Source: a virus
Lineage: Duplodnaviria > Caudoviricetes
Virus record (IMG/VR): IMGVR_UViG_3300040806_002135
Location: 1 to 56,526 of that record
Strand: one strand, 5' to 3'
DNA length: 56,526 bases
Both the position numbers and the translations under genes were made by a program. The notes below the pieces were generated by a model, which ran no database searches, had not been told where the DNA came from, and was given only the letters and a program-made list of their open reading frames with translations. Shown one piece after another: positions 110 to 24,900 of the stretch. The stretch's first letter is position 1. Each line of letters opens with the position of its first letter.

Positions 110-556
110 TCAATTGATTTGTTTTGGTGATTGTTCCAAGCCTTTTGGAATGTTGCCAAGCATGTGCTCTACTGTAACAGTCTGATTTATTTGTTTATTC
201 TCTTGTAGCACTCCCACTTCTGCTCCCATCATTCCAAGCAATCTAGAAGCAGGAGCAAAAGCCTTTTCCTGCTTCGCTAATAGGTAAAGATCGACCGCTT
301 CTGCTAGCACCCATTCTTTCGTAAGTACTGCTGTTCTGCTTTTGCTGTTCTCCAAGTCCTGCAAGTACTCCTGCACTCGATCACGCTTCAAAATATTGCT
401 TGCAATACCTGCTGCTGATTTTTCTGAGTATCCTGCTTCTTTTGCTGCCTCTATTCCATTGAAATTATTAGAAAAATATATATTGCAGAAGATTCGCTCT
501 TTTGGAGTGAGTTTGTTCTTGTTGGGTACTTGATTTGACATGAGCGGACATTTCAT
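110..556 (-). CDS. terS: Terminase small subunit
   Basis: LTPKERIFCNIY...NGIEAAKEAGYSEKSA...ASNIL...VQEYL matches the Terminase_2-type N-terminal HTH; start may be ATG 541. Confidence 0.88.
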   Translation of the reverse strand: MKCPLMSNQVPNKNKLTPKERIFCNIYFSNNFNGIEAAKEAGYSEKSAAGIASNILKRDRVQEYLQDLENSKSRTAVLTKEWVLAEAVDLYLLAKQEKAFAPASRLLGMMGAEVGVLQENKQINQTVTVEHMLGNIPKGLEQSPKQIN

Positions 557-659
557 CTTATACTTGTTCCATCGTCAGACACGGCAACGCAATCGCAAGC
601 CAGTCAGACGCAAATCAAATCCTATCAACATTATTTCTATAAAGTGTTAGGCGTTTGAT

Positions 660-689
660 TTGACATTTATTAGACGATTAGAGTATAAT
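660..689 (+). promoter_or_regulatory. Strong sigma70 early promoter
   Basis: TTGACA (660-665), 18-nt spacer, TATAAT (684-689), upstream of the early gene array. Confidence 0.88.
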
Positions 690-695
690 AGTACT

Positions 696-925
696 CAACA
701 ATTCAGACAAGGCAAGACACCCGAAAGTGCGAAAGCGCCTGAACCCTTGCCTTGTGTTCGCAGTATCTTCGAAAATTTAAAGACGTGAGCGCCTAACCAC
801 GGTAGTCCATAAGATTCACGCTGAAACTAGGCGGACTAGCCAACGCAGTCCGTTCAAAAAGATTCACCAGAAAACAGTACGTCCAACGTTGGGCGAAAGT
901 GTGGTGGATCAATGCCTCCTCCAGA
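696..925 (+). ncRNA. Structured 5' leader / candidate ncRNA
   Basis: No ORF; stems ACAAGGCAAG 707-716/CTTGCCTTGT 746-755 enclosing two GAAA loops, GGCGGACT/AGTCCGTT, GATTCACCA 861-869/TGGTGGATC 902-910; G-U pairs on the + strand. Confidence 0.55.
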
Positions 926-941
926 ACCATGCCCATTTGGG

Positions 942-1017
942 CATGGCTTAGAGTCCATCAAGGTGGACTGTAGGCCATGACTAAACATGGCATTCAATCA
1001 ACTAATCTGGAGGCAAT
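942..1017 (+). promoter_or_regulatory. Intergenic two-state stem element E0 plus RBS
   Basis: CATGGCTTA 942-950/TAGGCCATG 971-979 around AGTCCATC/GGTGGACT; alternative GCCATG/CATGGC; then AACTAATCTGGAGGC. Confidence 0.7.
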
Positions 1018-1137
1018 ATGCGAAAGCAATTAGTGGTCAGTCAGTTCCCTCAGTACCAACGCCCTCGGCGTTGGAGGATGAACCCACTAGAACGCCTAGA
1101 AATGGGCGTTCGTTACTACAAAAAACCAAAGATGTAA
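1018..1137 (+). CDS. Small basic hypothetical protein (39 aa, MRKQLVVSQFPQYQRPRRW...)
   Basis: Translated by hand; strong CTGGAGG RBS; stop abuts element E1. Confidence 0.6.
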   Translation: MRKQLVVSQFPQYQRPRRWRMNPLERLEMGVRYYKKPKM

Positions 1138-1215
1138 ACCTAGCATAAGACTGCTATCGGCAGTCTGTTAGTAGGTTTATGACCTGCTGTTTCAACAACT
1201 AATCTGGAGGCGACA
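1135..1215 (+). promoter_or_regulatory. Intergenic two-state stem element E1 plus RBS
   Basis: TAAACCTA 1135-1142/TAGGTTTA 1172-1179; AGACTGC/GCAGTCT; alternative AGTAGGT/ACCTGCT; AACAACTAATCTGGAGGC. Confidence 0.75.
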
Positions 1216-1527
1216 ATGTACCAAAGAGTAGAAGAATACGAATTCGTGCAAGCATTCAAAGACTTCAACCGTACCGATCAATTCACCAGAGATGGGCTGA
1301 ATGTTCTATTTGAACACCTAGTGTCTTTAGAAGAAGACACCGGCGAAGAGATTGAACTAGACGTGGTTGCTTTGTGTTGTGAGTTCTACGAGTACTCACT
1401 GAAAGAGTACAACAACGAACATTCCCAACAATGGGAAACCATTGAAGAACTCGCAGAACACCTAGCAGACTACACAACCGTTGCCGGAACAACTGGACGA
1501 GACACCATAATCTTCCAAGCATACTGA
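1216..1527 (+). CDS. Acidic early phage protein of unknown function
   Basis: F.R..QF...GL..LF..L...EEDTGEEIELDVVALCCEF pattern is familiar from phage early proteins; strong RBS. Confidence 0.8.
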   Translation: MYQRVEEYEFVQAFKDFNRTDQFTRDGLNVLFEHLVSLEEDTGEEIELDVVALCCEFYEYSLKEYNNEHSQQWETIEELAEHLADYTTVAGTTGRDTIIFQAY

Positions 1528-1641
1528 AAACTAGTTCAGAACAGTCATCGTTGACTGTTCGCAAGTAGGTTTCAACTACCTGCTACCTCACGGACAACTA
1601 CACCCAGTAGTGTCCTAAAAATAATAATTTCTGGAGGCAAT
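1525..1641 (+). promoter_or_regulatory. Intergenic two-state stem element E2 plus RBS
   Basis: TGAAAACTA 1525-1533/TAGGTTTCA 1566-1574; GAACAGTCA/TGACTGTTC; alternative AGTAGGT/ACCTGCT; extra hairpin; TCTGGAGGC. Confidence 0.75.
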
Positions 1642-2391
1642 ATGGCACTGTTAACAATCGGCGGAAACCCAAAACTCGCTAAGTCTGACACGTCCAACCA
1701 AGGCTTCATCACAGCAGGACTGAACTTGGCTGCTGCCAACACGTCCGGCTACGAAGTATGCCCAAGACGTTCAACAGGCTGCACAGCAGAGTGCTTGCTG
1801 TACCAAGGACGTGGACGCATGGCTTCCGTGATGGCAGCACGACTGACAAAGACTAAGTTCTTCTTTGAGCATCGTGCTGACTTCTTGGAACAACTGCATG
1901 GCGAGATCGACAAGTTCCAACGTTCGGCAACTCGCAAAGGACTGACTGCCGTCGTGCGGCTCAACGTGATGTCTGACATCAACTGGGAGCGCATCGATCC
2001 ATCGTTGTTCACTACCTTCCCCAACGTGCAGTTCTATGACTACACCAAACGGGAAGACCGAATGAACCGATTCCTTGACGGCAACTTTCCCAGCAACTAC
2101 TCGCTCTGCTTCTCACGCAGCGAGGACAACGAGGACTACTGTCGCACGGTTCTCCAACGTGGTGGAACCATCAACGTGGTCTTCCGTGACTGGTTTCCAC
2201 TCAGCTACCTTGGCTTCCCAGTGACGGACGGAGACAAGGACGATCTCACGTTCTTGACACCATCACACACAGTCCGTGCTGTGATCGCCAAGGGTAGTGC
2301 AAAGCACGACAAGTCTGGCTTCGTTGTCGATGCGACTGACAAGCACATGCAGTCATCTTGGCAAAGACAAAAAGCGGAGGCAATCGCATAA
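1642..2391 (+). CDS. GP88-like (radical-SAM-like) phage protein
   Basis: NPKLAKS, CPxxxxGCxxxC cysteine triad, VRLNVMSDI and FYDYTK motifs. Confidence 0.75.
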   Translation: MALLTIGGNPKLAKSDTSNQGFITAGLNLAAANTSGYEVCPRRSTGCTAECLLYQGRGRMASVMAARLTKTKFFFEHRADFLEQLHGEIDKFQRSATRKGLTAVVRLNVMSDINWERIDPSLFTTFPNVQFYDYTKREDRMNRFLDGNFPSNYSLCFSRSEDNEDYCRTVLQRGGTINVVFRDWFPLSYLGFPVTDGDKDDLTFLTPSHTVRAVIAKGSAKHDKSGFVVDATDKHMQSSWQRQKAEAIA

Positions 2392-2475
2392 CTGAGATCC
2401 ATGCCTAGACACTCAACGAGTGTCTAGACCTGACATCACGGTGATGCAGGGACTAACAACAATATCTGGAGGCAT
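2389..2475 (+). promoter_or_regulatory. Intergenic stem element E3 plus RBS
   Basis: CTAGACACTC 2405-2414/GAGTGTCTAG 2418-2427; CCTGACATCAC/GTGATGCAGG; AACAACAATATCTGGAGGC; outer stem degenerate. Confidence 0.65.
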
Positions 2476-2619
2476 ATGGAACAAGAAACAAAGATCGTAA
2501 CGCTTACCATCAAACTAGAAGTTGATGAAAACGTAGACGTTGAAGAGATGGTAAATGAGATGGACTACTCATTCGACTACGACGGAATTCTTGGATCAAC
2601 AATCACGGAGTATGTATGA
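2476..2619 (+). CDS. Small acidic hypothetical protein (47 aa, MEQETKIVTLTIKLEVDENVDVEEMVNEMDYSF...)
   Basis: Translated by hand; CTGGAGG RBS. Confidence 0.75.
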   Translation: MEQETKIVTLTIKLEVDENVDVEEMVNEMDYSFDYDGILGSTITEYV

Positions 2620-2732
2620 AACAGAAACTACTAGCCCGTAAACGATGGATCAAGGCGAGAGAAAAGGCTATTGATCGTATCCTTGCGAGGATACCAAAAG
2701 AAGAACAACCAACGGAGGAATCAACCAACTAA
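2616..2732 (+). CDS. Small hypothetical protein (38 aa, MKQKLLARKRWIKAREKAIDRILA...)
   Basis: ATGA overlap with the upstream ORF, GGAG RBS, stop abuts element E4. Confidence 0.6.
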   Translation: MKQKLLARKRWIKAREKAIDRILARIPKEEQPTEESTN

Positions 2733-2813
2733 AACCCAGATTGTTACGCTCTTCCCTAGAGCGTAGCGACCTGCGTTTTAAGCAGGGTTTAACAACCAAC
2801 TACTGGAGGCAGT
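2730..2813 (+). promoter_or_regulatory. Intergenic two-state stem element E4 plus RBS
   Basis: TAAAACCCAG 2730-2739/CTGCGTTTTA 2771-2780; TTGTTACGCTCT/AGAGCGTAGCGA; alternative CCTGC/GCAGG; AACAACCAACTACTGGAGGC. Confidence 0.75.
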
Positions 2814-3176
2814 ATGATTCATTGGAACATGACAACTAACACCTACTCAACAATCCACATCAACGATGTAGATGTTCGTACACTACGTCACATTGGCTAC
2901 AAGTTTTTTTGTGTAAAGATTGACTGGAATTACGAAGGTCAACTTGACGAAGATGACATTGAAAACCAACACGACACCAGCATCCAAGAAACAGTGTATG
3001 TCATTGCTGCAAATGAATGGCTTGCTGGACGTACCGCCTTCCTCCACTTGGACGATACCTACTCTCCAGCGGGAGATGCTTGGGCGGACGTAAGTGACGC
3101 AACAACCGCAACGGAAATCGAACCACTGGGCTTGAAACCGACTTACTACACCATCTCCATAAACCTAGAACCCTAA
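2814..3176 (+). CDS. Acidic hypothetical early protein
   Basis: 120-aa ORF with RBS, bounded by E4 and E5. Confidence 0.75.
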   Translation: MIHWNMTTNTYSTIHINDVDVRTLRHIGYKFFCVKIDWNYEGQLDEDDIENQHDTSIQETVYVIAANEWLAGRTAFLHLDDTYSPAGDAWADVSDATTATEIEPLGLKPTYYTISINLEP

Positions 3177-3267
3177 GAACCCAGACCGTCACCCTTCACG
3201 GAGGGTGATTGCCTGCGTTCTTCCAACGTAGGGTAACTAACAACGCCAACAAGGAGGTGACAACGCT
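3174..3267 (+). promoter_or_regulatory. Intergenic two-state stem element E5 plus RBS
   Basis: AAGAACCCAG 3175-3184/CTGCGTTCTT 3213-3222; GTCACCCTT/GAGGGTGAT; alternative CCTGCGTT/AACGTAGG; AAGGAGGTGA RBS. Confidence 0.75.
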
Positions 3268-3453
3268 ATGACCCACAAACAATTCTTTTGGCTAGATCGT
3301 CCTCAGAACGATGATGACATCTGGAACCTAGCCTTGGAAGTTCTTTGTGCAGAGGAATACGACTCGCCTGACGAAATCTCCGACGAAGTGCTTGGAGACA
3401 AACTCAACGAGTTACGAAAGGAATACAACATCGAACGCCCAAAGCTAACCTAA
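3268..3453 (+). CDS. Small acidic hypothetical protein
   Basis: 61-aa ORF with perfect SD AAGGAGGT. Confidence 0.75.
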   Translation: MTHKQFFWLDRPQNDDDIWNLALEVLCAEEYDSPDEISDEVLGDKLNELRKEYNIERPKLT

Positions 3454-3528
3454 CCAACCCCCTACCTCCAGGTCGAGTGGCAACACTCGGCCTAGAACAA
3501 CCGAAAAACATTATTTTCTGGAGAATTT

Positions 3529-4203
3529 ATGAACATCAAAGACCTCAAGGTACTTGTGGCCTGTGAGTCCAGCGGCACAGTCCGTGACGCCTTCAACCGA
3601 CTGGGCTGCAACGCTTGGTCCTGTGATATTTTACCGGCGAACGGACAGCTTATTCAGACCGATGTCCGTGAAGTACTGTTTCCTGACACATGGGATCTGA
3701 TGATCGCACACCCCCCATGTACCTACCTGACTGCCAGCGGGATGCACTGGACGACAAGGGGACTGCGTGACCCCAAGCTGACTGAGGATGCCCTCGACTT
3801 CGTGCGATTGCTGATGGACGCACCGATACGCCACATCGCAATCGAAAACCCAGTGGGGCGGATCGGTACGGCTATTCGCAAGGCCGACCAGTACGTCCAT
3901 CCCTACCTCTTTGGCCACGATACCAGCAAATGCACCGGCCTCTGGCTCAGTAACCTCCCCAAACTTCAACCTACAGAGTTTGTTCCAGCGGCACGACACG
4001 CTTGCTGTGGCAAGTGGCAGGACGAGGGACAGTGCAGCGAGTGCGGCAAGAAAACCAAGCCACGCTGGGCGAACCAAGCCCCATCGGGTGCTGACAGCAC
4101 ACCCCCATCGAAAGATCGCTGGCAGAAGCGGTCTGTTACGGCAACCGGCATCGCCGATGCGATGGCCCAACAATGGACTCAACACATACTGGAGACAGCA
4201 TGA
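3529..4203 (+). CDS. DNA cytosine-C5 methyltransferase-like protein (short phage type)
   Basis: VLVACESSG (motif I), DLMIAHPPC (catalytic PC), IENP (motif VI), KxTxLW, RSxT..GIA.AMA.QW. Confidence 0.85.
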   Translation: MNIKDLKVLVACESSGTVRDAFNRLGCNAWSCDILPANGQLIQTDVREVLFPDTWDLMIAHPPCTYLTASGMHWTTRGLRDPKLTEDALDFVRLLMDAPIRHIAIENPVGRIGTAIRKADQYVHPYLFGHDTSKCTGLWLSNLPKLQPTEFVPAARHACCGKWQDEGQCSECGKKTKPRWANQAPSGADSTPPSKDRWQKRSVTATGIADAMAQQWTQHILETA

Positions 4204-4412
4204 TCGAAATCACCGCACAACCATCGCAACGATACACTCCCCCCGTAGACGATTGGGAGAGTTTCATTCAGATCTGCCATGAGGAGGATTTTTCAGGTCT
4301 ACCTATGCTTGGGTATAGGCAAGACTATGAAATCGCCACAGTAACAGATCTGAGCATCCACACGGGCATATCGACGCCTTTCAACTTAGACGATTTGACT
4401 AGGAGTGAGTAA
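4200..4412 (+). CDS. Hypothetical protein
   Basis: ATGA overlap with the MTase stop, GGAG RBS. Confidence 0.6.
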   Translation: MIEITAQPSQRYTPPVDDWESFIQICHEEDFSGLPMLGYRQDYEIATVTDLSIHTGISTPFNLDDLTRSE

Positions 4413-4413
4413 A

Positions 4414-4842
4414 ATGAAACTAAATATTTCGGAGGAACGAGCAGACATCCCCAAGATCGACGCTGCCATCGGCAAGTGGCTCACGCACGGAACGACCATC
4501 TTCCAAATGCGAGACTTCGCCCAGCAGGCAGAAAAACTCTTGGACAAGATCAAGCTGCCCAAGGCTGACCGCTCCGGCGTACAACACGCCTTCTACTCCG
4601 GCAGCGTGGTTCCCAACCGTTACCGACACGAACGTTCAACGCACTGTGTCCTGCTGGAGCGCGGCACAAGGGACTGGTATCTCAGGTCCGTCTATCGAAC
4701 CACCCAATCCCCTAGCCAAGGCCACCGTGCCGAAACGTACCTCACCAAGAAACAGCGGGACATCGTTGTCCGCCAATTCACCAAGCAATTCACCGTCCTC
4801 AAGGATAACGCATTGGAAACCACCGCAAAGGAGACAGCTTGA
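4414..4842 (+). CDS. Hypothetical protein
   Basis: AGGAG RBS, packed tightly in the early operon. Confidence 0.7.
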   Translation: MKLNISEERADIPKIDAAIGKWLTHGTTIFQMRDFAQQAEKLLDKIKLPKADRSGVQHAFYSGSVVPNRYRHERSTHCVLLERGTRDWYLRSVYRTTQSPSQGHRAETYLTKKQRDIVVRQFTKQFTVLKDNALETTAKETA

Positions 4843-5654: not shown

Positions 5655-6010
5655 ATCTGAAACACTGTGTACCCATGAAAATCTGGACATACAAATCCGT
5701 CAAGGCTTGGATCGTCAAGTACGAAGAAGACGGCGAAGTTGATTATGAAGTTCACTTTTCCCTCATGGATGCATCGGATCACGCAGGACAGGCATCCGCC
5801 ATTATGCCACTACCGGAGATCATCGAAGCCAAGGTTCTGATCAAGGACGGGTTTAGCTGGCCGGATCGTGAAGAGTATGGCGAACATCGTGGCAAGACAC
5901 GGAAAGATCCCAACGTTGTAGATTTCATCGAACAGATCGAAGCCGAACAGGAAAAAGAAAGGAAACTCTATGAAGAACTCGACGACGACGATGAAGAACA
6001 AACCTACTGA
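5651..6010 (+). CDS. Hypothetical protein with acidic C-terminus
   Basis: ATGA overlap, AAGGAG RBS, EELDDDDEEQ tail. Confidence 0.7.
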   Translation: MNLKHCVPMKIWTYKSVKAWIVKYEEDGEVDYEVHFSLMDASDHAGQASAIMPLPEIIEAKVLIKDGFSWPDREEYGEHRGKTRKDPNVVDFIEQIEAEQEKERKLYEELDDDDEEQTY

Positions 6011-6692
6011 GGCCTGCTACTACCTCCGCACCTCCAGCGCCACGAACGTTGGTGGCGATTCCGACGTGCGGCAGAAAGCCGCCATCGACAAGTACGCCTT
6101 CCAGCAGGATCTCACGCTGGTGCGGGGGGCCTACGACGCTGCCGTCAGTGGCAGTGACCCGATCCATGAGCGTCCAGGGCTGACCGACCTGCTCGACTGG
6201 ATGACCAAGAACCACATCACCCTGCTGCTGGTGGAGGACTCCTCCCGCTTCAGCAGGGACCTGATGGTGCAGGAGATCGGACACCAGTACCTCAAGTCCC
6301 TCGGCATCCAACTGGTTCCGGTGGACTCCCCCGACTCCTTCACGGAGGACAGCGAGGACCCCACCCGCACCCTGATCCGCCATGTGCTGGGGGCGATCCG
6401 GCAGTTTGAGAAGACGCAGGTCGTGCTGAAACTGAAGGGGGCCCGTCGGAGGGCACGGGGTTCCAGCGGCAAGCTAACCCGCGCTGGCGTAGGCAAGTGC
6501 GAGGGGCGGATCTCTCTGGAGGAACGCTACCCTGGCATCACGGAGCGGATCTACCACCTCCGTGAGGAGCGCAAACTCAAGTGGGCGGTGATCCCCCCGC
6601 AACTCTGGGAGGAGGGATTCACCAGCGAGGTAGGCACACCGATCAGCGTCAGCAGGCTCCACGCCCTGCACCGTGCGGCCTTGCGGCGCTAA
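5991..6692 (+). CDS. Small serine recombinase (resolvase/invertase family)
   Basis: YLRTSS catalytic motif, DAAVSG...RPGL, LLVEDSSRFSR, long E-helix, GKCEGR, C-terminal helical DNA-binding domain. Confidence 0.92.
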   Translation: MKNKPTEACYYLRTSSATNVGGDSDVRQKAAIDKYAFQQDLTLVRGAYDAAVSGSDPIHERPGLTDLLDWMTKNHITLLLVEDSSRFSRDLMVQEIGHQYLKSLGIQLVPVDSPDSFTEDSEDPTRTLIRHVLGAIRQFEKTQVVLKLKGARRRARGSSGKLTRAGVGKCEGRISLEERYPGITERIYHLREERKLKWAVIPPQLWEEGFTSEVGTPISVSRLHALHRAALRR

Positions 6693-7116: not shown

Positions 7117-8205
7117 CTAAAGCAGATCCACCACCCCTTTCGTATCGTCCGACGTAATCATCGCATAGTGCTTGAGCATCACCGCGACGGAATGCCCTGC
7201 AACGTTGGCGACCAGTTCCGCCCTGCCGCCGGACTCCAAGAGCATCTTGGTGATCCCTGCGGCACGAATCCCATGCAGGGGTTTTGGCCCAACGATCCCC
7301 AGTTCGGCGCAGCGCCGCCGGAACACTTGGGTCAGCGCCCATGCCGAGGCATACGCTGGATTCCCATGACCATCATCCAGCCACCACCTCTCCGCTGGTT
7401 TCCGTCTCTTCCGATCCGCCGCCACCAACTGCCGTAGGTGGAGGCCGATGGGGATGCGCCGTTGCTGTCTAGTCTTGACGGTCCACTCCAGTTGGGGGAC
7501 ATCCTCGACCAGGATGATCCCCTCTTCCAGCCGCACGTTGGCTAGCGGCAGGGACCAGATCTCGCCGGATCGCATGACGGCGTACCGTGCCAGCCAGAAG
7601 ATCCGCAGCCAGTCCTCGTTCCCCTTGTTCTGAAGTTCTTCTTCCAGTGCATCCAGTTGTTGAGTCGAGTAGATGCTGGGGTTGCGTTGGAACACCCTGC
7701 GTTTCTTGAGTCGGAGTGGTCGGGGCAGCAGGTTCTGATCGTAGAGCCAGTTGGCAAAGACCTGCAGGCTGCGTTGGTCCTTGGCGACGGTGGCATCGGA
7801 AGCGCCCTTGGAGAGCCGGACGTTGACAAAGCGGGTATTGGCTTCCGCATCAAAGAACTTGATGGAGTGATCCCCATTGATCTGGACCCAGAGAACGATG
7901 GCCCGTTTGTACTCGGTGAGGGTACGGGGGGCCAGCAGGTTTTCCAGGCTATCGATCCAGCGGGAGGCAGCGTTGGCAAAGAGGATGGGTTCGGCTCCCT
8001 CCCCTTGCTCCCCCAGCAGTTTCTTTCGGAGGGCGGCTTCTATTTGATGATAGGTGTAGTCCAGATCTTCCCGTGTGATGGAGGGGTGATCTTCGATGAG
8101 ATCCTTGACGGGGGGTCGTTTCCCAGGCTGTTTCAGTTTCCAGAAGCGTCCGCACCACATCTTACGTCGGACATCGTAGAAGACATCTTCCCTTTGTCTG
8201 CCCAT
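7117..8205 (-). CDS. int: Tyrosine recombinase / phage integrase
   Basis: Catalytic set: MRSGEI (R), VKT (K), LHGIR (HxxR), AGHS (H), KHYA (Y); core-binding domain LAPRTLTEY. Confidence 0.92.
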   Translation of the reverse strand: MGRQREDVFYDVRRKMWCGRFWKLKQPGKRPPVKDLIEDHPSITREDLDYTYHQIEAALRKKLLGEQGEGAEPILFANAASRWIDSLENLLAPRTLTEYKRAIVLWVQINGDHSIKFFDAEANTRFVNVRLSKGASDATVAKDQRSLQVFANWLYDQNLLPRPLRLKKRRVFQRNPSIYSTQQLDALEEELQNKGNEDWLRIFWLARYAVMRSGEIWSLPLANVRLEEGIILVEDVPQLEWTVKTRQQRRIPIGLHLRQLVAADRKRRKPAERWWLDDGHGNPAYASAWALTQVFRRRCAELGIVGPKPLHGIRAAGITKMLLESGGRAELVANVAGHSVAVMLKHYAMITSDDTKGVVDLL

Positions 8206-9208: not shown

Positions 9209-9982
9209 ATGTCTAACTGGGAGTTCTTGTCAGCAAGCCGTCTCAATAGTGAATGTCCGGCTTCGCTGAACTATCGCTACAACGAAGGAATCAAATCCCC
9301 CGACAACGTCTACCAGATTTTGGGAGACGCTGGAGAAGCAGGGATTGAGGCAATCCTTCGCAACCACAGCAGTAGCACCCACCACCCCCACCTAGCGGAG
9401 GCGGAGGTGTGGGCAACGATCAAGCGCCGGTGTGAGGAAACCGGCGTAGAGGCCCCCGCTGATGAGGACGTGGTCCGTGTAATTGCTGCGGTCGAGCAGT
9501 TCCAGCCTGCCACGGACTACGTTCTCAGGAGTTCCCAGGAGAAGATTCTTCTGGAGACACCCAGATTACCGATGCCTGTGATTGGTTATCTGGATTTCCG
9601 TGGTGAGGAGGGAGGAGAGGTGGTCATTGATGACGTGAAGGTGTCCAGCGCCAGACTGAGTAAGCCCAAGCCGGAATGGATTCTCCAGTTGGGCGTATAT
9701 GCGTTGGCAGTGAAGATCTCGCATGGACTTTCCTCTCTTCCTCGCACACGGATCATCTTTCTGAACCGGAGCAGCAAGCCGTCTTGTTCGGTATTGGAAG
9801 TGGAACACACGGTGGAATCGCTCTCCAACATCTTTCTCCGCGCCAGCCAGATCCAACGCTATCTGGAATTGGACTGGTGGCCACCCAACCGCAGTTCACA
9901 GTTCTGTAACGAACGAAACTGTGCTTTTTGGTATCGCTGCCACAGCGATCACCTCATCCCTTATTCAGAAATCGTCTCATGA
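9209..9982 (+). CDS. PD-(D/E)XK exonuclease (RecB/Cas4-like, probable Fe-S staple)
   Basis: LSASRL..ECP, GYLD, IDDVK, QLGVY, C-terminal C....C....C. Confidence 0.85.
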   Translation: MSNWEFLSASRLNSECPASLNYRYNEGIKSPDNVYQILGDAGEAGIEAILRNHSSSTHHPHLAEAEVWATIKRRCEETGVEAPADEDVVRVIAAVEQFQPATDYVLRSSQEKILLETPRLPMPVIGYLDFRGEEGGEVVIDDVKVSSARLSKPKPEWILQLGVYALAVKISHGLSSLPRTRIIFLNRSSKPSCSVLEVEHTVESLSNIFLRASQIQRYLELDWWPPNRSSQFCNERNCAFWYRCHSDHLIPYSEIVS

Positions 9983-10251: not shown

Positions 10252-10511
10252 ACGCCGCCGACGATCAGGTCTTGGGCCTCTTCCAGAGGAACCGCGAACT
10301 TATATCTCAACGGAAAGCCCGGAAATCACGATCACTCCAGCAGGTATGGGAGCATTCCACCGGCTGGTTAACTCCTTCAGAGAGGGAACTTCTGGAGGAA
10401 AATGACCGTCTACCCGATGGATATCGGACAGTAGACGAGAGAAAGCGCGGGTATCGATTGACCCAAGCAAAATTCAAGGAGATCTGCGATGGCAGCAAAA
10501 TTATTGGATGA
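10248..10511 (+). CDS. Hypothetical protein
   Basis: ATGA overlap, operon packing. Confidence 0.65.
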   Translation: MNAADDQVLGLFQRNRELISQRKARKSRSLQQVWEHSTGWLTPSERELLEENDRLPDGYRTVDERKRGYRLTQAKFKEICDGSKIIG

Positions 10512-11250
10512 TTTGATCCGTACCGGATTCAACCATCAGGAACCATTTCTGGTGATCAATGGTCGCCCAGGTGTGGGGAAGTCCACGCTTCTGGCGAACC
10601 TGCCGGATCATCTGATTTTCAATTATGACTTAGGCTTGGGCGAGTTGAACGCCCGTTCGATTGACATGAGTGAGCAGACGTTTGAGGACCAACTGTCCTT
10701 ACTGGAGCAGGTATCTCAGAGGCAGGGGGACATCAAGTGGGTTTGCTTTGACTCAGCAGACAAGATGGAGGTGAAGATCCAAGAGTCGGTCTGTCGGGAT
10801 CATGGTTGGAGCAGCATTGAGGAGCCCGGATATGGCAAGGGCTACATGTACGCCCGTGAGAAGAACGCCAAATTCCTGCGCTACACCAAGAGGTTGCAGC
10901 AGAAAGGATTTGGGATTGCGATTTCCTGCCATGCGGCCATCCGCTCACTGAACGAGCCCCATCTGGGCGAATCCTACGATCTGTACACCAGTAAGTTGCA
11001 CAAGCACATCGCGGCGGATCTTTATGAGGCCGCAGACGCAATCCTCTTTGCGACCATCAAGACATCTGTCCAGAAGAAAACAGGGGATTTCGGCAAGAAG
11101 ACCACCCAGAACGTAGTCAGTGGGGAGCGTATCCTCTACACGCAACCGATGACCGGTGTGGAAGCCAAGAACAGGTTCAACCTCCCATCGGAAATCCCGC
11201 TAGATGCAGAAGCCCTACTCAACCTCATCAGTGAAAACCGCAATCAATAA
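10489..11250 (+). CDS. Sak4-like / AAA_24 recombination ATPase
   Basis: GRPGVGKST Walker A, FDS Walker B, GYGKGY, AKNRF.LP. Confidence 0.88.
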   Translation: MAAKLLDDLIRTGFNHQEPFLVINGRPGVGKSTLLANLPDHLIFNYDLGLGELNARSIDMSEQTFEDQLSLLEQVSQRQGDIKWVCFDSADKMEVKIQESVCRDHGWSSIEEPGYGKGYMYAREKNAKFLRYTKRLQQKGFGIAISCHAAIRSLNEPHLGESYDLYTSKLHKHIAADLYEAADAILFATIKTSVQKKTGDFGKKTTQNVVSGERILYTQPMTGVEAKNRFNLPSEIPLDAEALLNLISENRNQ

Positions 11251-18696: not shown

Positions 18697-18860
18697 ATCG
18701 GCTAGAATCTATAAAATAAGTAATGATTTCAGTAGGGAGGGCACAGACTGAAAATCCGTGTGTCGCAGGTTCGATTCCCGCTCTGGCCACCAGTAAACAT
18801 CAGGGATAGCGGGTTCTTAGACGGCTAGACAATATCTCCGATAACTCCGATGATCGGAGA
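18677..18860. repeat. Arm-type-like CTCCGAT repeats flanking the attP core
   Basis: ATCTCCGATA 18677-18686 and 18834-18843, AACTCCGATG 18843-18852, inverted ATCGGAGA 18853-18860. Confidence 0.6.
18746..18792 (+). mobile_element. attP: attP core: 3' half of tRNA-Phe(GAA)
   Basis: GACTGAAAATCCGTGTGTCGCAGGTTCGATTCCCGCTCTGGCCACCA has anticodon loop, T-arm and CCA; no D-arm or correctly spaced 5' acceptor strand. Confidence 0.88.
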
Positions 18861-18996: not shown

Positions 18997-21900
18997 TCAA
19001 TCCGCAGTTTGAGCAAATCTTTCCACTCTGTCGTTGAGTGTCTGCATTCGTCTGGTAATCAGTTTCTCAATAGCTTCGATGGAACTACGAGAAGCGTTTT
19101 TCTTGAGCATCTCTCGTTTCCTCTTCTGCAGTTTCCTCACCGCTGTCTCCACCTGTCCTGCAAATCCTGCCAGCCGTGCCTCTGGGAATTCCCGTAGGTA
19201 TTCGGCAACATTTTCCCGATTCGCTCTACGTCCATTGACTTCTGCCTCATGCTCATTGAGGCGGGTAATGTTTGTGTAAAAACGATTGCTGGTGGCAGCA
19301 CTAGATTCGGTGTTGCCGTAAAACCGACCTGCCAAGGGAATCTTGTACGGAGGCAATTCTTCTCCGGTGACGGCACTGGAAAGAGTTTGTTCCGCCTTCA
19401 ATAATTCGCGTCCGACACCACCAAAGGCTTGTCCCACAAGGTAGTCCAGTTGATCCGGTGTTGGAGAGAACAGTCCTTTCTGGTAATCGGTCCCCCCGCT
19501 GGCAGCGTTGAGGAAGTAGGCCAAGTAGGTATTGAGAGTGGAAGCGGTATCCTTTGCGCGGGTGTACCCAGGAGTCGGACGGGTACTGACCATGTCCTCC
19601 TTAGCAATCGGGCTACCCGTCCAGTCGCGGTTTTCGGACAAGGCTACCAGTGGATCTGCAACGGTAGGAGCAATGGTCTGCACCGACCAGCCAGCGTTGC
19701 CGATGGGGTTGAAGGCATCCAAGAAGGAGCCTGTGAATTGGCCCACCCGTTTTGCGGTATCTCGGCCACCGGAGAGTACAAACTCGGTAAGAATCCGGCT
19801 GGTATTTGGAATGATATGCAATCCCAGTGGCATCGGGATGGTGAGGTAACCGCCTCCGACCAAAGGAAGAATGATATTTTTTTCACGCACAAAGTACGGT
19901 GGTTCATCCTCATCAAAGTCTGCAGCCTCCAGCAGTAACGCTTGCGCCGTACCCAGCAGGAGTCCGCCCTTGAGGATTTTTGCTCCGGCAGGACCCTTCA
20001 TGGTTTCATACATCCGTGCCGTGCCTTGGACCGCTGCATTGAAGAAGGAGTAGAGAGCCCCAGCTTGTGTGGCAATCTGACCCTTTCGGTTGAAGTTGAC
20101 CGTCAGGTTTTTTGCCAGTGAGGCTGCGGCCTGTTTGCTCATCCCTTCTTCCTTGGCTACCTTGTAAGCAGAAAGCCGGACAGCATTTTCCATCGCTTCG
20201 TTGTAGTCGGACAGCCAATCCCGAATGGCATTCAAGGTCTTCATTGGTTTGCCTGCAGACAAGCCTTTGAGTTCCTTTTCCAAGGCGGTGGCCCGTTCGT
20301 CAGATCGGGCGAACATGTCTTTGTATCCAGTCTGACCACCTTCCTGCTGGAACTCTTCCCAAAGCTGAGAATATTGGTTCTGGCGGTTGGTATCTTTCCG
20401 TAGGACTGCATAGATGCCCTTGAGGGCAAGAGGGGTTCCTGCGAAGACTTGCCTTTGTTTGTTGCCGATGGGAGTGCTGGTCAGGTTGATCAGGGCTCCC
20501 TGCACGTCTCGGATGAGGTTGACGACACCAAAGATTGGGTTGTACTGAGTATTGACAGAGGTCATCCATCGGGTGACATTGCCCAGGATTCCCATGACCC
20601 GACCAAGCTGATCGGCATCTAGGTTCTTGAGGGACCGGACCATACGTTGGCTGGATGGGTTCTTGGCGTTGAAGATGACAAACTTATCCTGTCCATTGAT
20701 ACGGGTGGAAAGGTAGTTGTCAGAGTTTCGGATGGAAGCATTGATCCGGCTGACCTTCAACCCAGTTCTTGTGTCTGTGGATGAGGTGACTGGTTCCTTG
20801 GCAAAGTTTTCAGCCATGTCCGAAGGCAGACCCATGTTCTTTAAGGTTTGTGCCAACTGCCGGACATCCTTTTGTCCAGCAGGATCGATGACCAACCAAA
20901 AGTCGGTGTTCGGATTTTGTGCAGCCAACCCGTAGACGGCTTGGGCTACCTTGTTTTTGTTGGATCGGGTGATCGCCCGTTCGCGTTGCAGGGCCACGTT
21001 GGCAAGGACATCGATGACGCCTCGTTCGGAACCAACGGCACGGCGGGAAGCAGGATTGCGGACATCGTATCCCTGACCGATTCCGGCCCCAGGTTGCATC
21101 GGTTGGAAGTCAAACTCTTCGCGTAGGAGGGGAACATACTTTTTGTAAACGTCTTCCCAAGTATCCACCGTTTCTGCAGATTCCAAGGAGGAATCCTTGA
21201 GGATCTGACGGGTCTGGGAGGTGATGTTGTCCACCCGTTGGGCCAGTTGTTCAAAGACCCTGCGTTTTTGTGGTGATAGGTTGGCTAGGTAGTCTCTGGC
21301 TTCTGCAGTGGTCCGTCCAGATCCTTTGTCAGGCATGTCAGGATTGACCTTGGCCATCTGGATGTTGCGCTCTTCGGCATGGCGGTTCCAGAGGTAGTTG
21401 TCAAAATCCTTGATGCTGACACCAAATCGTTGAAGGTCTTCCATGAGTGGCTGTAGTTCGTTCGTCAGGAAATCCTTCGTCTCCTTGGCAGTACGTCCGT
21501 GGTAGAGTTCTTCCTGCAGATATGGGTTCCAACGTTCATCAATGTTACCGACAGCCTCCTTGATGGATTCGACCACCCGTTTGGTATCGATCATCTTGTC
21601 TTGCATCGTATAGAGGTAGTCATCGATCTTCGATTCTGTCGGAGTTGTCCAGTTCGACAGTGGAACCTGACCCCCAATTAGGTTGGACGTGGGGCGGCTG
21701 GAGTATCGAACCCTTGCTGATCCGTATTCAATACGGTCACGAAGTTCTTGATTGATACGTCCTACTAAGGCTTCTCTTGGACTGACTCCTGACTCTATAG
21801 GAATTTCACGATATTCTTCTGGTTTTGCTTTGGCTTTGTTCCCACTGCCAACAACAAAATCTGTTGTTTGCTCTTTAAGGTAAGTGGCACGGCGATCAGA

Positions 21901-24900
21901 AGGAACATTTCTCAAAACATCTTTAACTGCTTTTTCAACATCATAGAGGCGAGGTTTTAAATCCTTGTTATCGTCCAAAACTCTTTGAACAATACTATTG
22001 TAATCTTTCTTGCTGATTCGGGCCGGAGGCTCTTTTAAATTTTCAGTCTTAAAACGTTCTTTTTCTTCGGCAGTCTGTTCTGCTCCTTCCTCCTCTTCCA
22101 CATCCCTTGTCCCTCGCTGTGCCCCCTCAATGATATTCCCATTCCCATCAACAAATTCCTGTTGAACCTGTTGCATGATTTTCTTCAACGCCGTTTCCGA
22201 ATACTGGCGCAGTCCCAGAGAACTCAGGACGTTCTGAACCAGATTTTCAAGGAATCCAACGTCTCTGGCTCCTGTTTCTGCAAAGTTCTTGGCAATGTAC
22301 TCTTCAATCTGGGTATTGCGGTCCTTGTTCACATAAGGCTGGGCATCTTTTGTCTTCAGCCATGCATCCACCTTTTTCCCATTCTTGATCCCAAAGTTCT
22401 TGATGAAGTCATTGAACTTTTCTCCCATCAGACCCCGTAGGCCAGCGTGGCCCAGTGCCTCATGGAAGGTGACTTCAACCATCCGATCCACTGCCTCACG
22501 GAGGTTCTTCCCTTGGATCTGATCGGCGATCAGCACAATGTTTCCGGTATCTGTCAGTGTGAATCCTTCTTCCAGGGAGTCTTCACGATTGGCCAGACCT
22601 GCTGCATCCCGATCCCGTCCCATTTCCTGCAGCTTGGCCACTGCTTCAGCCTTGTTGGCAACGACGGTCACCCGATCTCCGTTGGGGTCCAGCTTCTTGA
22701 GTACCGACTTGACTCCTTCCATTGCAGCCTTGACCTGCCGCGCCGTCAACTTCGTAGACGGACCTGCAGCATTGGTGGGACGGCTGGTGGCAGAGTAGGA
22801 GAAGCGTAGCCCCCGTGGGTTCCCATCGATAGTGTATTCTTCGTCACGGATATTGAACTCTTGTGCGTTGGGATCATAAAGACCCCCCTCATCAAATCCG
22901 ACTTCATTGGTCCCTCCAGACTCCCGCAAAGCGGCAGCGCCACGATCCTGCTCAATATCTGATCCTTGGTCTGCGATCAGTCGGGCTAGTTCTGATTGGG
23001 TGTCTGTTTCCGCAGTCTCAGAAAGTCCTTCGGCTTCCAGTGCAGCCAAGTCTTCTACCGATGGACCACTTTCCTCATCATAGATGGAAGCGAACTCCTC
23101 CAATGATGCAGTATCCACCGTCTCGGTTTCTAGCTTTGCGTTGGCAATTTCTTCCCTGGTAGCAAGTCCTCCTTCGCGGAGTTGTTGGAGCAGTTGCTGG
23201 GCTAACCGTAGTTGACTGATTTCATCATCAGGATTGAGTGCTTGGCGGTTTACTTCTTTTCGGAAAAGACCGTTGAAGCGTTGGCGATCTGCCAGCGGAA
23301 GTGCTTCCACTGCATTGCCCACTTCCTGCTCCAACCGATCCACTTCTGCTTGGTAAGGTTTGTATGCCTCTCCAACCTGGTTATCCAGTTTGTTAAACGC
23401 CACCCTAAGATCATAAAGTCTTTTCCTTTCTGCATTTTCTTCGGGAGTTAAATTGTCTTTATTAAATTTCCCGTTCTTTTTCCCCTTTTCGACCAAAGCC
23501 TTGTGTTTTGCACCAGCCTGTTCTGCCTCAATCCCCATCTCCTCCTGCTGCCTCTCCAAATCAAGGATAGCCTGGAACTCAGAACTCAGGTTACTGGATG
23601 TTTCCTCCGGTAATCTTTCCGGTAAGGGTGCTGTTTCTTCGACAACAGGTTCTGTTTGATTTAATTCAGCAAGGCGTTCATCAATTTTTTCCTTTAGACT
23701 TTTATTGGATGCCAGTTCAGCTTTGGTGGGATCTGTTTGAAAAGCCTCATCCATTAGTTGGGCTGCTCTTTCAAGTTTTTGACGATCCCTAGAATAACCT
23801 AAGTTACTATAAATAGTGGCTAGTTCTATTTTTCCTTCAGGCGATGTCAGATCAATTTGACTTTCCCCACTTTGCAAGGCTTCAAAAGGAATATCTCCTG
23901 GTAGATACCCGTAGTCCTTTTTGAGGTTGCCTTCAAGTAATCTGGCTATTTCAAATGCAGCATTGTCCTGATCGTAAATTTGGCCTACAGAAGCTTGACG
24001 ATCCGCTTTTAATTTTAAGTTCTCGTCAAGTTTCCCGATGGCTTGGGCTTTGCTGTAGAAGATTCCCCTTGGAAAAACTTTGCGCGGGACTACCAAGTTT
24101 GGAGCCTGTTCCACCGATGCCAACAACTTGCTCAAGGCAGGTGCAATTTGTTGAACCTGTTCTGGATTGGCTAGTCGGTACGGGTTGATTTCCGCAATCA
24201 GTTCTTCCGCACTCAGCAAATAGTTGAAGAACTGCTTGTCAATATTCCGACCTTCAGTATCCGCTTCTTGCACCCGTTGTCGCAACCCAGGGTAGAGAAA
24301 TTCTTCAATAGCCTTGAGTTCATTCCTGACGGCACTGTTTGCGTTGATTTTATCGCCTAGCAAAGAATGGGAGGCGTGTCCGAATTCATGGGCTAGTAAA
24401 TATCCGATTCTGGATTTATCTGAATCAAATTCACTACGGCCAGAGATTCCTACTCCTCCATTAAAGTGTCCGGCAGACCAGCTAGTCAATCCTTCAAACA
24501 CAAAAACGTTTGGAAGAGCCTGAGAGTATCTTGATTGAATCAAACCATCGATACCATCATCTAAAACTGGTTTTTGGTCTTGGTATCCAATCTCCTCAAA
24601 TTTCTCTCTGACTCTTTGAGGATTAGTGATTATTTCTTCTTCTGTGCCTCCACTGGGACGGGCATTCTCATCAAACGGAGCATCCGGCTCCAAGTCCGGC
24701 TGATCTCTCCGATTCACCAACGTTGGGGCTTCTGGTGGAGCAAATATATTTTTTGGGATTGCTCCAGCAGTATCGTCCGTTACCCGCCCATTGTTCGTTT
24801 TACCCTCTTTATTAATTGCAGGTAGAACTGGAGTTTCTGGAGCGACAGTCTCCTGTTCCAGTGGAGACTGAAACGCTGGGCCTTCCTCGGTAGTGGAGGC

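Follow-up and report, generated by a model that had tools for sequence, protein, structure and literature searches.

The DNA analysed here (the window) is an entire IMG/VR virus record, IMGVR_UViG_3300040806_002135, with 56,526 bases and an estimated completeness of 75%. It belongs to an uncultured estuarine phage of the Caudoviricetes, which has no close cultured phage. Near one end, two host-type promoters precede an early operon of small genes, and the gaps throughout the first 2.8 kb of this operon each contain a stable fold. Seven such inter-gene elements (E0 to E6) lie from 927 to 3528, all on one strand, and they are very probably selected sense-strand RNA structures at cassette boundaries. 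The features of this region, all on the + strand, are listed below, where P1 is an outer stem, P2 an inner stem, P3 a hairpin downstream of P2, and families A, B and C are sequence families of the elements.

535-564, + strand, host-type promoter 1 (11 of 12 matches), presumed driver of the early operon
660-689, + strand, host-type promoter 2, a perfect sigma-70 promoter (12 of 12 matches), in tandem with 535-564
1018-1137, 1216-1527, 2476-2619, 2616-2732, 2814-3176 and 3268-3453, + strand, small early genes
1642-2391, + strand, GP88 gene (Pfam GP88, PF17338)
3529-4203, + strand, DNA methyltransferase family gene (phrog_757)
927-991, + strand, E0: hairpins 927-946, 952-969 and 974-991, then a leader and CTGGAGGC before the ATG at 1018
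1135-1215, + strand, E1 (family A): P1 1135-1142/1172-1179 on the TAA stop, P2 1148-1166, P3 1170-1188, AACAAC leader, CTGGAGGC
1525-1641, + strand, E2 (family A): TGA stop 1525-1527, P1 1528-1533/1566-1572, P2 1539-1560, P3 1564-1584, A/T-rich leader, CTGGAGGC
1592-1615, + strand, fourth hairpin of E2
2389-2475, + strand, E3 (family C): no P1, P2 2405-2427, adjacent hairpin P3 2429-2450, AACAAC leader, CTGGAGGC
2730-2813, + strand, E4 (family B): P1 2730-2739/2771-2780 on the TAA stop, P2 2741-2769, P3 2770-2786, AACAAC leader, CTGGAGGC
3174-3267, + strand, E5 (family B): P1 3175-3184/3213-3222, P2 3188-3209, P3 3212-3232, AACAAC leader, AAGGAGG
3451-3528, + strand, E6: single hairpin 3468-3495 without P1 or P3, AACAAC leader, CTGGAGA site; kept in the relative L004

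E1, E4 and E5 each fold into one long irregular helix, which consists of P1, small internal loops or 1x1 mismatches, and P2. E2 follows the same plan, and in these four elements the helix of P1 stacked on P2 has a length of some 20-23 positions. E3 and E6 have only a 10-bp hairpin. A further sequence family with the identical plan, family D, occurs in relatives and not in the window. Counted from the folds of E1, E2, E4, E5 and family D, the arms of the P1+P2 helix are 20-25 nt long, mostly 21-23, and the P2 loops range from 3 to 6 nt. The stop-codon bases lie within P1 in E1, E4 and E5 and also in family D of three relatives (L004, L212 and L216). E0 has an alternative fold, in which one long helix replaces its three hairpins (925-990 region).

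An initial annotation, made from the sequence alone, had described six such elements, each before an early gene unit. All six are at the places it gave, and a seventh, E6 (3468-3495), lies just outside the range it covered. The position after a stop codon applies to E1-E5, whereas E0 follows a promoter and not a gene. An outer stem at or beside the stop codon had been proposed, and it is present in E1, E2, E4 and E5, although the P1 of E2 is weak (6 bp with a bulge) and begins on the base after the stop codon; E3, whose P1 had been called degenerate, folds without P1. The five pairs of P2 arms that had been quoted are correct. As for the AACAAC tract and ribosome site said to follow, both motifs are enriched: AACAAC..GGAG has 13 matches versus 3.3 expected, 6 of them at 1194-3523, and CTGGAGGC has 9 versus 2.5 expected, 5 of them before early start codons (1007-2810). 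The leader of E2, however, is A/T-rich and lacks AACAAC.

Two details of these motifs can be added. The ribosome site is kept as the 8-mer CTGGAGGC in five consecutive leaders, beyond what pairing with 16S rRNA needs, and this conservation may reflect common descent of the leaders or a recognition site. For their inner stems, the E1 type (AGACTGC/GCAGTCT) and the E2 type (GCAGTCA/TGACTGC) use nearly the same arms in swapped order (1148-1166; 1539-1560; L212 1765-1881), a swap which a simple hairpin inversion would not produce.

Raw sliding-window energies failed to single out the elements because G+C varies along the genome, and z-scores from 200 dinucleotide shuffles per element (+ strand) were used instead. 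The z-scores are -6.16 for E0, -3.38 for E1, -5.22 for E2, -3.55 for E3, -5.82 for E4, -2.92 for E5 and -5.50 for E6, and only 0-2 of the 200 shuffles fold as well as the real element.

In order to compare related genomes, as the initial annotation had proposed, we searched for relatives of the window. IMG/VR contains one, as two near-identical contigs (L003/L004), and one scan of metagenomes, for which the two GP88 proteins were aligned as the query, found six loci, of which L215 is the L004 relative (99.97% identical). Seven variants were thus available: the window, the L004 group, L212, L213, L214, L216 and L217. A variant map was built from genes clustered by blastp together with the element types. 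The element order D, A, A, C, B, B, E6 is common to all seven variants, as far as the contigs reach, while the slots between the elements hold different genes or none. In the blastn mosaic, the elements have 84-99% identity, and the neighbouring stretches have 72-76% (L004, L216) or are replaced or missing. For example, the slot between the two family A elements contains a gene for 103 amino acids in the window, for 58 in L212 and for 95 in L213 and L214, and it is empty in L004 and L216, where E1 and E2 are fused, the 5' half coming from E1 and the 3' half from E2. Between the two family B elements, there is a gene for 120 amino acids in the window and L004 and for 194 in L216, and none in L214. 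The methyltransferase gene is missing from L004. The elements sit exactly at the boundaries of the cassettes.

The crossovers are found at different points of the elements. The E1/E2 fusion (L004, L216) has its crossover inside the common AGTAGGTTT..ACCTGCT stretch, the E4/E5 fusion (L214) inside the AACAAC leader, and a third crossover is at the ribosome site (window 3256 versus L004 5913). When L004 6170-6190 is compared with window 3250-3273, the start of the window gene 3268-3453 (GGAGGTGACAACGCTATGACC) persists as the end and stop of an unrelated 89-residue gene, which looks like the scar of a gene insertion through a crossover at the ribosome site. Judged from these junctions, the best explanation for the exchange of cassettes is that conserved patches recombine by ordinary homology, a process in which the annealing protein and exonuclease of the phage may assist.

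Beyond this group, few similar sequences were found. A blastn search of 600-4300 against 50,697 phage records matched 2 records, and the best, Aeromonas phage phiWae15, matches the methyltransferase gene only. Searches with the capsid and the small terminase gave only distant relatives below 60% identity, and two IMG/VR fragments with the small terminase lack the early region. In species genomes, 8 loci with at most 48% identity were found and no prophage relative, and other GP88 loci have no similar elements among the matches listed. The 16-base family A motif matches at least 113 stretches in IMG/VR, one recognised as a known relative and the rest chance-like, while the strict 24-base family A pattern matches the two known relative contigs only, which indicates that the element sequences are lineage-specific.

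Stem pairs were counted by placing the named structures, derived from + strand folds, on MAFFT alignments of the variants. In family A (10 rows, 9 distinct), 99-100% of the cells are paired; P2 is 100% paired with 5 of 9 pairs changed on both sides, and P1 and P3 are almost invariant. In family B (9 rows), 97.7% of the cells are paired and both partners have changed in 4 of 20 pairs, including one P1 pair (AU 6, GC 2, GU 1). In family C, the E3 type (6 rows), the paired share is 99.1%, both partners have changed in 4 of 10 P2 pairs, and the only variation in P3 is a single change from U-A to U-G. Over these three families, there are 13 compensatory column pairs in total, and pairing drops to 21-54% when the 3' partners are slid by 1-3 columns. 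None of 500 shuffles reaches the observed pairing or covariation score, a control which does not give a probability because the alignment rows are related. Regarding the strand, the 494 stem cells include 451 Watson-Crick pairs, 37 G-U pairs, no A-C and 6 others, and G-U occurs in at least one row of 13 of the 62 stem column pairs. Since the opposite strand would turn each G-U into an A-C mismatch, it is the + strand, the mRNA sense, that was kept foldable.

Moreover, the initial annotation had proposed that a downstream segment can take the 3' strand of P1 to form a mutually exclusive hairpin, and this is borne out by the folds. P3 overlaps the 3' strand of P1 by 5-8 nt. The RNA between P2 and the ribosome site opens with this strand and, in all P1-bearing types, uses it in a hairpin of -7.9 to -10.2 kcal/mol; in two E2 copies, an extra hairpin (P4) brings it to about -20 kcal/mol. 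In a test in which the P1 3' strand was held fixed and the downstream rest was shuffled 1000 times, the fractions of shuffles that fold as well are 0.018 (family A, E1), 0.013 (B, E4), 0.045 (B, E5), 0.028 (D, L004) and 0.024 (D, L216), and 0.015 for E3. Fisher's method gives about 5e-5 for the five P1-bearing values; the families behind them were picked after inspection, and their independence is only partial. The same test shows nothing for E6 (0.07) and for F, an element present in L212 only (0.42). Blocking of the first 13 nt leads to P3 in each of the nine P1-bearing elements to which it was applied. In eight of them the free and the 5'-blocked fold are 0.2-5.1 kcal/mol apart, and in the ninth, E2 of L212, P2 and P3 are already present in the free fold. 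Unguided RNAalifold gives P1+P2 for family B and P2+P3 for family A, and single changes in relatives suit both states; an A to G change in L213, for example, makes U-G in P1 and G-U in P3. The predicted potential of the element RNA to adopt two states, with P1 or with P3, is thus real as far as such folding models go.

The processing signals between the early genes of phage T7 had been named as an analogue, and the likeness holds. We fetched the T7 early region and folded five inter-gene gaps likewise, which we take to be R0.3, R0.5, R1, R1.1 and R1.3; the T7 record itself carries no ribonuclease III (RNase III) features. In the gap between genes 0.4 and 0.5 (R0.5), a lower stem of 6 bp starts on the UGA stop and is separated by an internal loop from an upper stem of 9 bp, and a leader and a ribosome site follow, which is the plan of E1, E4 and E5. 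Like the elements, the T7 signals are two-tier irregular hairpins between genes of a single early transcript from strong host-type promoters, and their z-scores (-1.9 to -4.2) are similar to or weaker than those of the elements. There are differences as well. The upper stem is similar between T7 sites, whereas P2 differs in each copy here and the lower stem and flank are conserved per family. The P3 test found no hairpin in four of the five T7 gaps and a weak one in the R1.1 gap (-5.8 kcal/mol, 0.051), whereas every P1-bearing element here has the competitor. Cleavage is proven for T7, while the elements are putative processing sites, and no sequence likeness was seen between the two sets, for which no dedicated comparison was made.

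By analogy with T7, one long early transcript would start from the promoters at 535-689 and be punctuated by sense-strand RNA signals. A host double-strand RNase of the RNase III type would cut the P1-P2 helix, or the helix would serve as a 3' stabiliser after another cut, and the polycistronic RNA would be divided into gene units, each with a stability of its own. After cleavage has removed the 5' strand of P1, or while a terminating ribosome keeps it open, the 3' strand of P1 could pair downstream as P3, which would then stand at the 5' end of the next unit. Because conservation is confined to the signals and does not extend to the genes, the signals would also offer short homology patches for gene exchange, loss and gain. 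We put the chance that the elements are processing or stability signals of the RNase III type at about even. Our proposal that P3 is a cap formed after cutting or ribosome passage is tentative, and it is somewhat doubtful that the elements are bistable cut-and-recap boundaries, at which the upstream unit would keep a 3' hairpin and the downstream unit would gain a protective 5' hairpin. In passages of PMC3867540, the idealised Escherichia coli RNase III substrate has 22 bp and many cellular substrates have less than about 20 bp, loops or mismatches in the target favour single-strand cuts after which stabilising 3' hairpins remain, and the T7 early precursor has five processing signals. An irregular hairpin of about two turns is found in E1, E2, E4, E5 and family D, and not in E3 or E6.

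Part of the stretch is also contained in 13 runs recorded as RNA, four of which (X1 to X4) were compared as contigs. In two estuary runs, contigs with at least 99% identity cover much of 600-3574, and those of X2 bridge E1 (1008-1383) and E5 with E6 (3134-3574), which is not by itself proof of transcription. As far as the contig tables of X1 reach, its uncovered parts (1518-1575, 2399-2438, 2740 onward and 3185-3212) coincide with the P2 hairpins of E2-E5, two contigs of this run end at the homologous base after CCCAG (E4 2739, E5 3184), and a contig start at 1576 is common to X1, where adapter letters precede it, and X2; none of the three is counted as evidence. Such gaps and ends would suit excision of P2 and equally low depth or a library bias against hairpins. 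Contig joints in X3 and X4 (e.g. 3493 to 4199, 2779 to 3225) resemble further cassette variants, but they are leads only, with 88% likeness and short sides of 30-109 letters.

Several points weigh against reading the elements as sense-strand RNA signals that are processed in the T7 manner. The initial annotation had taken G-U pairs as a sign of RNA, and the counts across relatives agree with this, but the antisense energy is as good or better in three of the seven elements, so that energies of whole elements fail to tell the strands apart. In family B, a conserved A-C 1x1 mismatch that was treated as a loop would pair on the other strand, and structures derived from the + strand favour scoring G-U as pairs. 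P1 and P3 hardly vary inside a family, so that they are supported by the differing sequences which the families use for them and by changes that wobble pairing tolerates, and not by covariation in the classical sense. As to the mechanism, the cut, the enzyme and the role of P3 are what we infer, and an enzyme of the RNase III type is presumed in the host. The hairpins of E3 and E6, with 10 bp, are below the classical RNase III substrate length, and at least these two elements must therefore work differently or only as stabilisers. The contigs of the RNA runs show no ends, strand or level and may include DNA.

Two known kinds of phage motif resemble the elements. PeSLs, which had also been suggested as an analogue, occur between the small early genes of T4-type phages, where they combine a sigma-70-like promoter with a terminator stem-loop and bring about modular shuffling (excerpts of Arbiol et al. 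2010, PMC2839356, and Comeau et al. 2014, PMC4122927). As far as these excerpts describe them, PeSLs agree with the elements in several respects: the composite motif extends from the stop of a small early gene to the next ribosome site, the stem-loop has G-T pairs and stands among variable genes of unknown function, and the motifs are points of insertion, deletion or replacement between close relatives. The analogy thus applies to position and to the junctions of gene gain and loss, but not to the promoter. No convincing promoter other than 535-564 and 660-689 was found among the elements (927-3528), where the sole + strand promoter-like match, 2789-2818 (10 of 12), overlaps the ATG at 2814, and no promoter-like match was found at 1000-4600 of L216. 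Without promoters, the elements are not PeSLs. Moreover, PeSLs have a terminator stem-loop, whereas the elements have a long two-tier helix with a competitor hairpin and a T-run only after E4. A looser analogue is the start-associated sequence (SAS/ESAS) of Cluster K mycobacteriophages, a conserved motif of unknown function with upstream inverted repeats (excerpts of Pope et al. 2011, PMC3203893). In these excerpts, the short motif stands at the translation starts of some non-structural genes, with an imperfect inverted repeat just upstream in about half of the cases, and it is conserved across relatives before unrelated genes, as here. Its 13-bp GGGATAGGAGCCC is unrelated to CTGGAGGC, the host phylum and the phage differ, and its inverted repeats have a family consensus, whereas the inner stems here differ in each copy. 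The anchoring on stop codons and the competitor P3 are specific to this phage by comparison with SAS/ESAS as excerpted.

Four other explanations of the elements were considered. Without any cleavage, a terminating ribosome might itself melt P1, upon which P3 would form and change initiation at the next cistron or exposure to RNase, and expression or decay of each cassette would follow translation of the preceding one. This is in line with the stop-codon bases within P1 of most P1-bearing types, with the formation of a non-random P3 in all nine 5'-blocked elements and with the small cost of the change in eight of them. However, the ribosome site lies 20-30 nt beyond, in a G-poor unpaired leader covered by neither P1 nor P3, so that such a switch would have no obvious output on initiation, and the genes behind E3 and E6 have the same leader and ribosome site although these elements lack P1; we regard the switch as unlikely. 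The elements could also be transcription attenuators, that is, leaky terminators or pause sites which produce a falling expression gradient along the operon, like the stem-loop half of a PeSL. A precedent exists, since PeSL stem-loops sit between a stop codon and the next ribosome site and one of them reduced the expression of lacZ as a strong terminator would (excerpts of PMC2839356), and P2 of E4 was flagged as terminator-like with CCTGCGTTTT behind it. But a T-run follows only one of the seven window elements, and the terminator-like count (11) is not above that in shuffles (7.8 +/- 2.8). No promoters in or after the elements would restart transcription, so real terminators would silence the methyltransferase gene and everything downstream. 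Attenuation would also leave the stop-codon anchoring and the P3 competitor without a role, and we give it a low probability.

Palindromes that serve mainly for cassette exchange at the DNA level, as attC-like recombinase sites or as cruciform or hairpin DNA, are a very doubtful explanation. It is true that all gene-content differences among the seven variants are at an element or its leader, and that the phage encodes a tyrosine integrase, a serine recombinase-like protein, a Sak4-like annealing protein and an exonuclease. Scattered crossovers, however, suit ordinary homologous exchange and not a fixed cut site, the G-U and A-C counts of the stem cells point to selection on one strand, and P2 pairing is kept by compensatory changes though the P2 sequence is not conserved. 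The attC-like role, raised earlier for these hairpins, was rejected, because the crossovers are scattered over P3, leader and ribosome site and the pairing is strand-specific. The 3' core of integron attC sites is GTTRRRY, and the P1 3' strands, which read GGTTTA, GCGTTTTA and GCGTTCTT, do not fit it. The only tyrosine integrase gene is 4 kb from the elements, in the opposite orientation, and its product matches a family of general phage integrases. Lastly, the elements might be bound by an RNA-binding protein of the phage or the host, for instance a repressor of translation or an endoribonuclease with sequence specificity, and not be targets of a generic double-strand RNase. Binding of this kind would account for the conservation of P1/P3 and of the 8-nt CTGGAGGC far past the needs of pairing or of a ribosome site, and the Cluster K start-associated sequence is analogous (excerpts of PMC3203893). 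Against this, the P1/P3 sequences are of five or more unrelated kinds and those of P2 are many, with only the shape in common, which argues that structure and not sequence is recognised, and no candidate protein was found among the early genes; such binding sites are quite improbable.

Known RNA families gave no better account. The whole window has no Rfam match at gathering scores, and 500-4500 has five chance-level matches (E 0.6-10; 15-21 bits versus thresholds of 50-95); self-cleaving ribozymes and other known RNAs were rejected on this basis. The initial annotation did not recognise the motif as a described family, which agrees with Rfam, although the kind is known from T7 signals and PeSL-like joints. 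N4-type hairpin promoters had been an idea because the capsid is distantly N4-like and a virion protein of 2540 residues is encoded. This idea was dropped: the large protein has no structure match and matches unnamed PHROG families only, the P2 loops are variable (3-6 nt), and the operon has a perfect host promoter in front of it.

The finding is a well-documented version of a familiar device. The competing hairpin P3 is a testable addition to the T7 picture of mRNA punctuation, which predicts processed early messages with hairpins at both ends. If the processing reading is right, this phage lineage is a very clean case of a virus that keeps its regulatory frame and trades the genes inside. 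Under the cut-and-recap reading, any gene placed between two elements would be provided with signals for its own stability and translation, as in a plug-in expression frame. The frame would then have been re-invented in at least five unrelated sequences, something undescribed for T7-type signals. Across the seven environmental variants, one order of RNA signals encloses more than 12 different small early genes. Small early genes of this sort are usually directed against the host or its defences, so the frame would mark where to look for them. The short, modular and non-identical versions of the element could also be used as insulating parts in synthetic operons.

Other genes of the window mentioned above are located as follows.

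110-556, minus strand, small-terminase gene
5970-6692, serine recombinase-like protein gene
7117-8205, strand opposite to the elements and 4 kb off, tyrosine integrase gene (general phage integrase family match)
9209-9982 and 10489-11250, exonuclease and Sak4-like single-strand annealing protein genes
18997-26619, minus strand, 2540-residue virion-region protein

Further along the window are a primase-helicase gene and virion genes on the minus strand. The exonuclease and Sak4-like annealing pair could drive recombination at short imperfect homologies of the sort offered by the elements. PHROG matches of the 2540-residue protein are confined to its last ~880 residues and belong to families of 2800-3900-residue proteins of unknown function, and a sequence search against solved structures matched none.

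Past 3529, genes overlap or abut and no such elements are present, and no stop-anchored two-tier element was found in other + strand gaps of the window. The only other stop-adjacent + strand hairpin noticed is a lone one at 10403-10440, right after the stop of a gene ending at 10405 in the replication module, and it has neither P3 nor an AACAAC leader. Before the first early gene, an untranslated leader of about 320 nt (690-1017) contains several hairpins and matches L004 at about 75%; its Rfam matches are only weak, sub-threshold and chance-level. ARAGORN found no tRNA gene anywhere in the window. However, 18757-18795 resembles the T-arm and acceptor end of a tRNA (GGTTCGATTCC at 18768-18778; CCA end), and it could be the core of an attachment site in a host tRNA gene, with the integrase gene 10 kb distant.

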